Positions 34,549-58,943 of a stretch of DNA of 64,000 nucleotides are shown one piece after another. Source of the DNA: Thermofilaceae archaeon. GTDB taxonomy: Archaea; Thermoproteota; Thermoprotei; Thermofilales; Thermofilaceae. Position 1 is the stretch's first letter; each line of letters starts with the position of its first letter. Below the pieces are notes generated by a model. It worked only from the letters and a program-made list of their open reading frames with translations, did not search any database and was not told where the DNA came from. The position numbers and the translations under genes are program-made. The stretch is from assembly GCA_038861545.1 (NCBI GenBank), contig JAWCCZ010000005.1:64103-128102 (forward strand), read 5' to 3'.

Positions 34549-34665
34549 GGGGCCGTGGCCTAGCAAGGTATGGCGGCGGTCATGTCATAGGCGGCCGAAG
34601 CTCCAGATTAAATGGAAACTCAAGGAAAAACCCGCAGGTCCCGGGTTCGAGTCCCGGCGGCCCCA
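34549..34665 (+). tRNA. tRNA-Trp(CCA) with two introns (30/31: 34580-34599; 37/38: 34607-34629)
   Basis: Acceptor GGGGCCG/CGGCCCC, T arm CCGGG-TTCGAGT-CCCGG; removing both introns restores GCGGG-CTCCAGA-CCCGC; BHB central helices CGGC/GCCG and CTCC/GGAA; CCA end not encoded. Confidence 0.93.
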
Positions 34666-38042: not shown

Positions 38043-38148
38043 TGGCGCCGGGGCCGGGATTCGAACCCGGGCGTCCTGACAAGGACAGCGGCTCTCTAGC
38101 AAATCTCGGTCTCAAGGCCGCCCCCTTAGTCCACTCGGGCACCCCGGC
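38043..38148 (-). tRNA. tRNA-Ser(TGA) with 17-nt 37/38 intron (38094-38110); CCA encoded
   Basis: Acceptor GCCGGGG/CCCCGGC, G73, long variable arm GTCCT-TGTC-AGGAC, anticodon arm GCGGC-CTTGAG^A-GCCGC; downstream of tuf-rps10. Confidence 0.95.
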
Positions 38149-43618: not shown

Positions 43619-43694
43619 TCGGTATTTTTACTTTTAACAACCATAACATAGGATAAATGATATATTAGAATCAGTATACTTAGTATCCACATAG

Positions 43695-43787
43695 CGGGCC
43701 CGCCGGGACTTGAACCCGGGTTCTCCGGCTCCGAAGGCTTGCGCCCCGTTAACGGGTCGACGCCTTTCCAAGCTAGGCCACGGGCCC
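43695..43787 (-). tRNA. tRNA-Arg(TCG) with 19-nt intron at 29/30 (43739-43757)
   Basis: Acceptor GGGCCCG/CGGGCCC; splicing out ACCCGTTAACGGGGCGCAA gives TCGGC-CTTCGGA-GCCGG; BHB central helix GCGT/GCGC and outer helix CCCG/CGGG. Confidence 0.93.
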
Positions 43788-56271: not shown

Positions 56272-56971
56272 CTTTAGAGCCTAAAACTAAATTAGCTAGC
56301 TTCTTAACCTCTTCTAAGGGATCGGCTACGTAGTGTTCCTCACAAAGTCTTTTTATCACATAAGCGGCCGAGGCTTCAAGGTCAGCCTCTTCTCCGATAA
56401 CTATTATACGCCCATTCCTGCCAACGGTTATTTCGACATTGAATGCCTCTTTTAAGTAGTTTACGACTTGCCCTCTCTTACCTATGACTCTCGACACCCG
56501 TGCAGGAGATACCTCAACCAGCAGCCCCTTCTCTACTCTGCCGAGCCTCGATTCCTTCATCGTTAATAGGGGATCATGTGTAAAATCAAATAGTAGTACC
56601 TTTGCTGCCAGTAAATCACCTACTCTAAAGATACTTGAAAGGTCTTTTTGGTGAGACGTGGGACGCGGAAATATTTCAGACACTTGAAGTATCGCCGTGT
56701 ATGGTGAGTTTATGTCCACCAACCAATACGTAGGCCCAACATCAATAACTTTACCTATGATTAAATCGCCTTCAGAGGGTATGTAACAACGCTTTATCGG
56801 TATGAGCCTTATTTTCTTGGGTTTCTCAATTACTGTCACGCTTAGCACTTTGGAGTAGAATTTTTTCCCCCTAGAGAAGTGTGGTCCACTTATTTCATAA
56901 CTGCCTTCTGCTATTAGCTCGCCAGGTATTATGATTTGCCCGTCAGATATATGTATTGGCATACACTTCAC
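56240..56971 (-). CDS. rrp4: Exosome complex RNA-binding protein Rrp4
   Basis: [37 protein letters not shown]. Confidence 0.95.
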
Positions 56972-57675
56972 CCCACACTAACCACCTTTACCTCACCTTG
57001 ACCCTTAGTTAGTGAGTTAACTTGTTGCATAATGTTCTCAACTAAACCTGCGGGAACCTCTAGCTCTGCAATCCAAGATCCATCGTTTTGATAATGACTT
57101 TTCATTATTTTACCAGCCTTTGCTAAAACCGCATATGCCTTACCCGAATATTGTGCAGGTATCCTCACCTCAACTAAGGCCCTAGCAAACTTTAATGGTA
57201 AAATTTTATTTAATGCTTTAATCGCCTCCTGAATTTGAGTTTCAACAGGCTTAAAAGGATCCACGGAGATTTCAGCTTCTTCAAGTGCTAGCTCGATACG
57301 TTTCGGAGGATGAGGTAAGCCCGTACGTGGATCAACCGCATTACGTGCAATGAAATCTATTATTTGACGCTTCTTTGTTTCTACTAATTCCCTTCTTTGC
57401 TCGGCTGTTAACTGTAATTCACCTTGCTTTATTATTACTTCCGCAACTCTATAGACGTCGTCAGTATTGAAAAGTTTAGTCAAATCATCAGGTGACGCTT
57501 TAAGCCCTTTCCGCACATCATAATAAACATGTGGACTCTCGACAACTTCGTGAACGTCTATATTTACTCCGTTTTTAATCTGCCACGCTTTCTCTACATC
57601 TACAACTACCTCAAATCGTTTGCCTCCTTTAGCGAGCCTAGCGACTCCTAATCTCTTTTGATTCAAGCCAAACAC
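56968..57675 (-). CDS. Ribosome maturation factor SBDS/Sdo1
   Basis: [36 protein letters not shown]. Confidence 0.96.
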
Positions 57676-57752
57676 CCCTCAATACATAAACCATTAATAT
57701 TTTAAGACTATGTAACTGTGGATTATTTAAACACCTAATAATTAAATCAACC

Positions 57753-57808
57753 GGCGATGAAGAAGGAGGTGAAGACAGAAGCTGTGAAGATCCGCAACTC
57801 ACCGAGCC
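57753..57808 (+). ncRNA. C/D-box sRNA
   Basis: GGC-g-ATGAAGA(C)-aggaggtgaaga-CAGA(D')-agct-GTGAAGA(C')-tccgcaactca-CCGA(D)-GCC; 12- and 11-nt guides; terminal stem; TTTAAA at 57726-57731. Confidence 0.75.
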
Positions 57809-57824
57809 ATAAAATATCTATAAC

Positions 57825-58943
57825 TTACTCTATCCATAGTTCCCTATCCAGTTTCTCTGGTATGTACTTCTCCGTCAGGAACTTAAATCCATAACCGCTT
57901 AAAGCCTCTATTTCCACTTTCTCCTGCTTGCTTAGAAATAGTTCTAATTGCTTCATCCATTCCTTCGATTCCTTAAACCATGGGTAATTTAACAGCTCCT
58001 TAGCTCTCTTTAAGTCCCTATCTTTAGCTTTTATTATGAAGTTTCGCGGTATTTTATAATCATAAATGTCCGATACTGTTAACCCCAAAAACCTTGCTCC
58101 AGGAGTAGCTAGTCTTTCGCTTTCGTAACCTAGTGTTATGGATCCGCTCCTGTATACGCTGTATATATAAAATCCATAGGGATCTGCGTCTGTAAGTACA
58201 TATGCTGGCAGCTTATGTTCTTCCCATAATCTACGCACCATACGTCTAGTACTCCTATCAGGCTGCCCCTTGCCAGTAACCAAAAGACATCTGTTCTTCT
58301 CCCAGAATCTTTCTTTATTCAGCCTGTTGAATATAGCGTCCTTCTCTATGACTAAGACATATTCGGCATCTACACTAAGTATCTCAAGAGAATCCGGGTT
58401 AGGAGGGATTGAATAAGCCCCATCTCCCATTCTAGAACAATCGATAGTATCAGCACCGGATCGAATTACTATGCGACCTACTATTTTACCTTTCGTGTCA
58501 TGTAGAATGCCCATATGCTCTCTCAAAAGCCCTGTTATTACCTCTATATCCTGGATAGCGCCATCGGACTCCTTTTGTGTATCCCATGTTTCTTCTCGCT
58601 TCAATCTACCATGTTCATCAAGATATTCAATAGTATGTTTACCTGCATAGTATAAATCTCTGATAGTGGGATAATCGCCTTCCCGTATAGCTTTCACAAT
58701 AAGTGATAACATTAACACTGTTTGCATGAATTTTCGTGCTTCCCCCATGTCTAGAAACTCTCTTTTTACTTTTTTCGACCCTAGTTTTAGAATCCTGGCC
58801 TCTGGGTCCCATATTATGTTGGCAAGCGTGCGCGCCGGTACTTGAAGTGTAGGGGGCTTCCCTCTAGATATTTGTCTAGTTAGATCCTTTCCAACTTTTT
58901 CGAGTGCCCTAAGAATTACGCCTTCCCTATCGACTCTTTGCAT
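57825..58943 (-). CDS. top6A: DNA topoisomerase VI subunit A
   Basis: PTIRDLYY (catalytic Tyr), VIEKDA, GKGQPD, TDADPYG, EIEAL. Confidence 0.97.
   Translation of the reverse strand: MQRVDREGVILRALEKVGKDLTRQISRGKPPTLQVPARTLANIIWDPEARILKLGSKKVKREFLDMGEARKFMQTVLMLSLIVKAIREGDYPTIRDLYYAGKHTIEYLDEHGRLKREETWDTQKESDGAIQDIEVITGLLREHMGILHDTKGKIVGRIVIRSGADTIDCSRMGDGAYSIPPNPDSLEILSVDAEYVLVIEKDAIFNRLNKERFWEKNRCLLVTGKGQPDRSTRRMVRRLWEEHKLPAYVLTDADPYGFYIYSVYRSGSITLGYESERLATPGARFLGLTVSDIYDYKIPRNFIIKAKDRDLKRAKELLNYPWFKESKEWMKQLELFLSKQEKVEIEALSGYGFKFLTEKYIPEKLDRELWIE

Follow-up and report, generated by a model that had tools for sequence, protein, structure and literature searches.

The locus and its small RNA element

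Within the window (the whole 64,000-nucleotide stretch of archaeal DNA that was analysed, part of contig C5 of the genome referred to here as G000), a complete C, D', C', D layout of 56 nt can be read from the plus strand at positions 57753-57808. It sits between two protein-coding genes on the minus strand: SBDS, the first gene of an SBDS-Rrp4-Rrp41-Rrp42 operon from which the element diverges, and the gene for topoisomerase VI subunit A (Top6A), with which it is convergent and whose stop codon lies 17 nt past the element's 3' end. The features of the locus, by window position, are these:

56968-57675, minus strand: SBDS, with Pfam SBDS_N, SBDS_domain_II and SBDS_C
57723-57731, plus strand: TATA-like element TTATTTAAA, read from the sequence, its centre ~26 nt 5' of the RNA's first G
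57753-57808, plus strand: the whole box C/D sRNA, from sequence, sub-threshold Rfam C/D matches and the orthologs of covariance model R1
57753-57755, plus strand: 5' half of the terminal stem, GGC, the partner of GCC at 57806-57808
G57756, A57757 and U57758, plus strand: k-turn bulge of 3 nt
57757-57763, plus strand: C box AUGAAGA (consensus RUGAUGA; position 5 is A, not U)
57764-57775, plus strand: D' guide AGGAGGUGAAGA, 12 nt, with nine pairs to the 16S tail and positions 4-11 invariant
57776-57779, plus strand: D' box CAGA (consensus CUGA)
57780-57783, plus strand: D'-C' spacer AGCU, 4 nt
57784-57790, plus strand: C' box GUGAAGA, identical in the orthologs of G002, G001 and G003
57791-57801, plus strand: D guide UCCGCAACUCA, 11 nt, an apparent orphan with no convincing rRNA or tRNA target
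57802-57805, plus strand: D box CCGA (consensus CUGA, which the G002 ortholog has at the aligned position)
57806-57808, plus strand: 3' half of the terminal stem, GCC, examined by a register test in orthologs
57825-58943, minus strand: Top6A, with Pfam TOP6A-Spo11_Toprim and TP6A_N

Read in order, the element is GGC, G, AUGAAGA, AGGAGGUGAAGA, CAGA, AGCU, GUGAAGA, UCCGCAACUCA, CCGA and GCC. The preliminary description of this locus had reported the same layout with guides of 12 and 11 nt, a GGC/GCC terminal stem, a TATA element belonging to the RNA itself and divergence from the SBDS operon, and all of this holds up, Pfam supporting the assignment of SBDS on the minus strand.

Each of the four boxes departs from consensus at one tolerant position, the C and C' boxes both carrying A instead of U at position 5. 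The k-turn retains its tandem G-A/A-G and G-C pairs, with A-C in place of the U-U pair, as follows from a C box AUGAAGA facing a D box CCGA. The UGAAGA variant of the C box also occurs in another C/D candidate of the G000 genome, and CCGA D boxes are common among expressed sRNAs of Methanopyrus and Ignicoccus (PMC4644070). The RNA's own fold is no better than that of shuffled sequences (z = 0.24), which is as expected for a C/D guide, and genes for the sRNP proteins fibrillarin, Nop5 and L7Ae are all present in the G000 genome above Pfam cut-offs.

At gathering thresholds, Rfam reports nothing at 57753-57808. Below threshold, the models sR14 (RF01145; 18.4 bits, E 0.0086) and sR1 (RF01152; 16.8 bits) match end to end over 57753-57807. 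Both have their generic C/D architecture in common with the element, but their gathering scores are 38 and 45, respectively, and their guides are unrelated, so that membership of either family is ruled out. The element is an unannotated RNA gene missed by current Rfam models. A strict C/D pattern with stem finds nine sites in the genome, the present one included, as opposed to none in a reversed-sequence control. Note that AGGAGGTGA by itself occurs 22 times in the genome; that the sRNA is more than a chance arrangement follows from conservation of the whole element across the taxonomic order.

Conservation of boxes, stem and guide

BLAST yielded short matches in relatives, after which the covariance model R1 was built from six copies. 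The model finds orthologs in 23/23 genomes of the family that were searched, which represent nine genera, with E values down to 1e-27, and two further copies were located at the syntenic site. By inspection, five more families of the order (f2, f3, f4, f7 and f8) also have orthologs, as do f14 and f15, two families of the same class. For f15, the family of Pyrobaculum, the pattern matches inspected look like coding sequence except in genome G118. A pattern consisting of a C-type box followed by N-GGAGGUGA is found in 63/120 genomes of the class, far above the reversed control. Since a phylum-wide search gave only weak enrichment over the reversed-pattern control beyond the class, we do not claim a wide distribution.

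The preliminary description had made its reading depend on the persistence of the boxes in relatives, and they are conserved in 33 orthologs. C-box positions 2, 3, 4 and 6 are invariant, with U, A and G at position 5 in 19, 8 and 6 copies, respectively; in the D' box, position 3 is G in 28/33 and position 4 is A in 30/33. The D' guide shows no variation at positions 4-11 and the register of the boxes is fixed in all 33 copies. Note that this invariance is partly by construction, as the search pattern used for many of the orthologs contains those columns; family members found by the model and the syntenic copies give the same picture as the copies found by pattern. Elsewhere in the guide, position 12 can be A, G or U and positions 1-2 are free; position 3 carries A in 19 copies and U in 14, with G and C absent. 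Several orthologs are fully canonical, an example being that of G017 with UGAUGA, CUGA, AUGAUGA and CUGA.

The terminal stem was assessed by register. A full 3-bp stem forms in 13/26 orthologs when the two halves are aligned in register, compared to 1-3/26 in shifted registers, and it does so with seven different sequences (GGC/GCC, GCC/GGC, GAA/UUC, CGA/UCG, CGC/GCG, AGG/CCU and UGG/CCA). Judged by these alignments, the stem covaries.

At short evolutionary range, the ortholog in G002, a genome of the same genus, differs from the G000 copy at C-box position 5, guide positions 12 and 2, D' position 2, in the spacer, at three positions of the D guide and at D-box position 2, where G002 has the canonical CUGA. 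These within-genus substitutions fall on tolerant positions only. G002 and G000 also have a promoter block in common, TTATTTAA(A/G)CACCTAA, and AT-rich TATA-like elements lie at equal distance in other orthologs. Taken together, conservation of boxes, stem and guide argues that the small archaeal box C/D guide RNA at 57753-57808 is real and conserved.

Individual copies deviate in other ways. At the SBDS-Top6A junction of G011 (locus L110), the guide AGGAGGUGAAUA is kept and the C box reads GUGCUGA, with the A of the tandem G-A pair replaced; the cause may be decay of this copy or an error in the assembly. In the orthologs of G043 and G044 (loci L057 and L058, family f3), a 15-nt GC hairpin, GCCGCUAYAGCGGCC, is inserted after the D' box (CUAA) and before the C' box, an unusual structured spacer for a C/D sRNA.

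The 16S target and the proposed function

The single 16S gene of G000 lies at C1:47268-48768 and its 3' end reads ...CCGGAUCACCUCCU, followed by ucccag. The D' guide forms nine contiguous Watson-Crick pairs with UCACCUCCU, its best match in the entire rRNA operon including the spacers, such that guide positions 12-4 (57764-57772) pair with 16S U1540-U1532. The N+5 nucleotide, guide position 5 (G57771), lies opposite C1533 (E. coli numbering; ~C1494 in the 16S of G000), the C in GGAU(C)ACC, and pairs with it. Both the nine-nucleotide perfect complement and the N+5 position had been put forward in the preliminary description, and the organism's own 16S bears them out. Dennis et al. (2015) predicted targets from duplexes of nine base pairs in which the N+5 pair is Watson-Crick (PMC4644070); the D' guide forms such a duplex and the D guide does not.

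Are there better targets? None was found for the D' guide among the genome's tRNAs, and its full 12-mer complement UCUUCACCUCCU is absent from the genome. A better, full 12-nt match in another stable RNA, which the preliminary description had named as the mark of an ordinary guide, is thus found neither in rRNA or tRNA nor in any other stable RNA. Sites with one mismatch (n = 24) and UUCACCUCC sites (n = 18) fall nearly all within long ORFs. An intergenic 11/12 site at C3:232701-232712 (minus strand) of G000 was considered as an alternative target and rejected, having no Rfam match and being at chance level. We likewise rejected masking of the D' guide by the D guide, the pairing between them amounting to a 5-bp GGUGA/UCACC that is not kept in G002. 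It is the mRNA-binding 3' tail of 16S rRNA that the D' guide pairs with, most likely to direct ribose methylation there.

A full-text literature search for C/D sRNA together with anti-Shine-Dalgarno returned no direct match. Yet the design of a 16S-tail guide is already published for Nanoarchaeum, and methylation of the same position has been measured in Ignicoccus, these being the only two organisms in which methylation of the 16S tail has been measured (PMC5389701). In N. equitans, Am1534 lies within the anti-Shine-Dalgarno and is guided by the D guide of Neq sR13, as determined by MALDI-MS and RiboMeth-seq, while the other guide of sR13 is directed at A1408 (PMC5389701). Like the sRNA described here, Neq sR13 is a box C/D RNA with a guide complementary to the anti-Shine-Dalgarno tail at 16S 1531-1540, and the two have the guide core AGGAGGUGAU in common. 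They differ in that the tail guide of sR13 is the D guide, with a register shifted by one to give Am1534, whereas here it is the D' guide and the predicted target is C1533; in that the partner guide of sR13 addresses helix 44 (A1408) whereas the partner guide here appears to be an orphan; and in that RsmA/Dim1 is absent from Nanoarchaeum but present in the G000 genome.

A second parallel is with I. hospitalis, where Seistrup et al. (2017) measured Cm1533 and gave its guide as "a presently unknown sRNA" (PMC5389701). Among the sRNAs listed by Dennis et al. (2015) are Neq sR13 (…GAGGAGGTGATA CTGA) and also an expressed I. hospitalis RNA, Iho sR305 (…GGGAGGTGATCA…), whose target is given as "NP"; their table has no 16S target past position 1401 (PMC4644070). 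The D' guide of Iho sR305, GGGAGGUGAUCA, directly follows the C box, and it is because our sRNA has this same register (C box plus 12 nt) that N+5 falls on C1533. The boxes of Iho sR305 are more degenerate than those at 57753-57808, and its guide pairs through positions 2-3, which the guide described here does not. From the matching registers we infer that sR305 could be the Cm1533 guide, a link made in neither PMC4644070 nor PMC5389701.

With these precedents in mind, we consider it likely that the locus encodes an independently transcribed 56-nt box C/D sRNA that guides 2'-O-methylation of C1533 and also holds the tail transiently during late 30S maturation. L7Ae would bind the terminal k-turn, made up of the GGC/GCC stem and the C and D boxes, as well as the internal C'/D' motif, and Nop5 and fibrillarin would assemble next on the L7Ae-bound RNA. 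The D' guide would then pair with the single-stranded 16S tail U1532-U1540, including the anti-Shine-Dalgarno CCUCC, and fibrillarin would methylate C1533, opposite guide position 5. As the bound RNP necessarily holds the tail, a transient role in late 30S maturation would come with it. Transcription and RNP assembly are presumed in this scheme, and methylation is predicted by homology with Ignicoccus Cm1533 and the sR13-guided Am1534. The preliminary description had suggested that the RNA might methylate or chaperone the tail; in view of the pairing with the organism's own 16S, the order-wide conservation of the guide and the published tail methylations (PMC5389701), this is the best-supported candidate function.

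Why, however, should the guide pair so poorly next to the D' box? Guide positions 3-1 (AGA) oppose GGA and are unpaired, which leaves the target pair only second from the end of the 9-bp duplex. Positions 1-3 are likewise unpaired in genera g1-g5, in part of g8 and in several sister families. By comparison, the guide of genus g9, AGGAGGUGAUCU, pairs 12/12 (with one G-U) with positions 1529-1540 of its own 16S. On account of the missing D'-proximal pairs, methylation may be lower than with the g9 guides, or abolished. Imagine that it were abolished, so that a C/D sRNP with a GAAGA guide still bound the 16S tail and no longer methylated it. The RNP would then serve solely as an assembly chaperone or checkpoint, holding the anti-Shine-Dalgarno tail until, for example, 3'-end trimming or the action of Dim1 is complete. 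The unpaired box-proximal positions, set beside the invariance of the distal eight to nine pairs, speak for such a role, and chaperone roles have been proposed both for archaeal guides (PMC4644070) and for the 16S 3' region (PMC5389701). However, the G-C pair at N+5 is intact, the duplex has the 9 bp of the published prediction rule (PMC4644070), the D' box retains its GA, and the register equals that of the Cm1533 measured in Ignicoccus (PMC5389701). Moreover, binding and methylation are not exclusive. We therefore regard loss of methylation as unlikely and prefer methylation of C1533 accompanied by transient holding of the tail. Whichever applies, the natural split between fully pairing ..GAUCU and truncated ..GAAxx guides can be used to probe how much pairing the archaeal enzyme needs.

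Against the rRNA operon with its spacers, the D guide UCCGCAACUCA reaches 8/11 at best, with mismatches, and the pre-rRNA spacer target suggested in the preliminary description was not found; nor was a target found among the tRNAs, and the only exact match to the 11-mer, at a single genomic site, is at chance level. The D guide is also without the helix 44/decoding-site target of the partner guide in Neq sR13. In the six genomes with the SBDS-Top6A arrangement, the D guides all carry CCGCA at the box-distal end. Pairing of this CCGCA with the 3' strand of h45 (UGCGG, 1522-1526) was considered and rejected because 45/60 column shuffles did as well in a joint scan. Going by these searches, this organism's D guide is an orphan.

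Elsewhere in the family, the D guides of loci L075 and L076 (G013 and G014) and of L038 (G001) form 11 contiguous pairs with 23S rRNA (nine Watson-Crick and two G-U). The sites differ (compare G000 C1:51179 and C1:49073), which suggests that the partner guide is retargeted from genus to genus. Good 23S matches in individual genomes reflect the drift that is usual for one of two paired guides.

For families f14 and f15 (loci L088-L091 of G078, G081, G082 and G084; L096 of G118; L085 and L086 of G067 and G073), the D position can be the one that holds the tail-complementary guide, and the partner guide has complementarity to 16S in its 5' domain. The G118 guide GGAUAGCGGUCG has an 11-nt match with CGACCGCUAUC at 16S nt ~25-35, and the guide of genus g36, xGGAUCAACAAA, has an 8-nt match with the 16S 5'-terminal GUUGAUCC. 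Note that matches of 10-11 bp (with G-U) in the spacer after 23S compete with the latter and that G081 breaks the 8-bp pairing, so that bridging of the 16S 5' and 3' ends in g36 is only a lead.

A broader scenario can be built from these observations. The family might be the missing guide for Ignicoccus Cm1533 and might also mainly hold the tail in late assembly; the unpaired box-proximal positions (GAA-N-N) may mark a switch from methylation to pure tail-holding, and in f14 and f15, where the partner guide lies on the 16S 5' domain, one RNP may tether both ends of pre-16S. Taken jointly, we think this combination rather improbable.

If C1533 is indeed methylated, a ribose methyl in or next to the anti-Shine-Dalgarno tail would touch mRNA selection as well as the last steps of small-subunit maturation, namely 3'-end cleavage and the Dim1 checkpoint. 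According to the comparative data, a putative guide for C1533 is stably kept throughout an order of a crenarchaeal lineage in which RsmA/Dim1 is still present, and tail guides are thus not peculiar to the reduced Nanoarchaeum. The RNAs described here also make up a family that is a concrete candidate for the "unknown sRNA" to which Ignicoccus owes its Cm1533.

Genomic context and translational readings of the element

Conservation at the SBDS-Top6A junction, which the preliminary description had proposed as a check, is seen in only 3/9 genera: g1 (which comprises G000 and G002), g2 and g8. There, no same-strand gene follows downstream. Elsewhere, in g3, g4, g5, g7 and g9 and in four other families, the sRNA lies upstream of, or overlaps, a same-strand gene for an XPB-like SF2 helicase (an assignment whose scores fall below NCBIfam cut-offs). 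A gene for ribosomal protein S3Ae diverges from it in most f1 genomes with the helicase arrangement. No such sRNA element lies upstream of the helicase homolog in G000. Being kept in two different genomic contexts, the sRNA is independent of its neighbouring genes, and what is peculiar to the copy described here is local: degenerate boxes, pairing lost at the three D'-proximal guide positions and a site away from the helicase gene.

The linkage of sRNA and helicase gene is kept in at least five families and is most intimate in g9 (L004:1457-1520, minus strand, and L025-L028), where the sRNA overlaps the 5' end of a helicase of 495+ aa, with S3Ae divergent and upstream. The helicase ATG lies just 5' of the C' box (AUG GUG AUC...), and the D guide and D box, read as codons, give a D-Y-G-G-L stretch that is conserved. 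In Pyrobaculum, sRNAs overlapping ORFs at their 5' ends, with the start codon in the C' box or D guide, are a described category (PMC6009581). The g9 orthologs fit it exactly, with a start codon at the C' box and an overlapping D guide that is an orphan, and the copy at 57753-57808 differs from it in overlapping no same-strand gene (Lui et al. 2018). A Pyrobaculum sRNA family with a 16S-tail guide does not appear in the article text of that source.

Could the element, then, be no RNA gene at all, and instead a 5' leader whose Shine-Dalgarno site is genuine, or the relic of one? In most relatives it directly precedes or overlaps the helicase start, this linkage has been kept across several families, and in g9 part of the element doubles as codons. 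In the window, too, a GTG at 57784, inside the C' box, lies 11 nt past the Shine-Dalgarno-like stretch, and the frame that starts with it runs for 36 codons antisense to Top6A. The preliminary description was thus mistaken in holding that no suitable start codon follows; its view that the stretch is not a real ribosome-binding site stands, since the frame stops after 12 codons in the G002 ortholog and is not a conserved ORF. Against the leader reading, g1, g2 and g8 keep the element intact without a downstream same-strand gene. Nor does a leader need a C box, a D box or a covarying stem, all of which are conserved, and the distance from the Shine-Dalgarno-like stretch to the helicase start varies from ~13 to ~60 nt. 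Overlap with an ORF's 5' end, finally, already has its described counterpart among sRNAs with a start codon in the C' box or D guide (PMC6009581). With boxes, stem and guide retained in the absence of a gene and the following frame not conserved, we reject the leader reading as very improbable.

Equally improbable, in our view, is the preliminary description's other suggestion of an anti-Shine-Dalgarno decoy or sponge on mature ribosomes that shifts translation between leadered and leaderless mRNAs: complementarity to the 16S tail is all that speaks for it, whereas no sequence feature sets the element apart from an ordinary guide, conservation tracks the geometry of a C/D guide (fixed 12-nt register, free ends) and not maximal Shine-Dalgarno strength, a sponge would presumably need to match ribosomes in abundance, and no regulated promoter features were seen.

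A few further observations concern the surroundings of the locus and the genome at large. A divergent SBDS promoter block, AACCATTAATATTTTAAGACTATGTA, within 57676-57722 is identical in G000 and G002; its distance of ~25-30 nt from the SBDS GTG suggests that the mRNA of the SBDS operon is leaderless. The strict C/D pattern finds eight further candidates, three on the plus strand (C1:301314, C4:238497 and C6:1064) and five on the minus strand (C1:369335, C3:101911, C5:74422, C5:92247 and C6:23653, counted from the 3' end of the contig), which represent unannotated guide RNA genes; none reaches an Rfam gathering score in the window. As for tRNAs in the window, Rfam places them at 34549-34665 (plus strand, 117 nt) and 43695-43787 (minus strand), while ARAGORN calls a tRNA-Leu at 38043-38140 (minus strand) and, at 43694-43787 (minus strand), an odd tRNA whose anticodon has 4 nt. 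The two tools thus disagree, and these are probably tRNA genes with introns.
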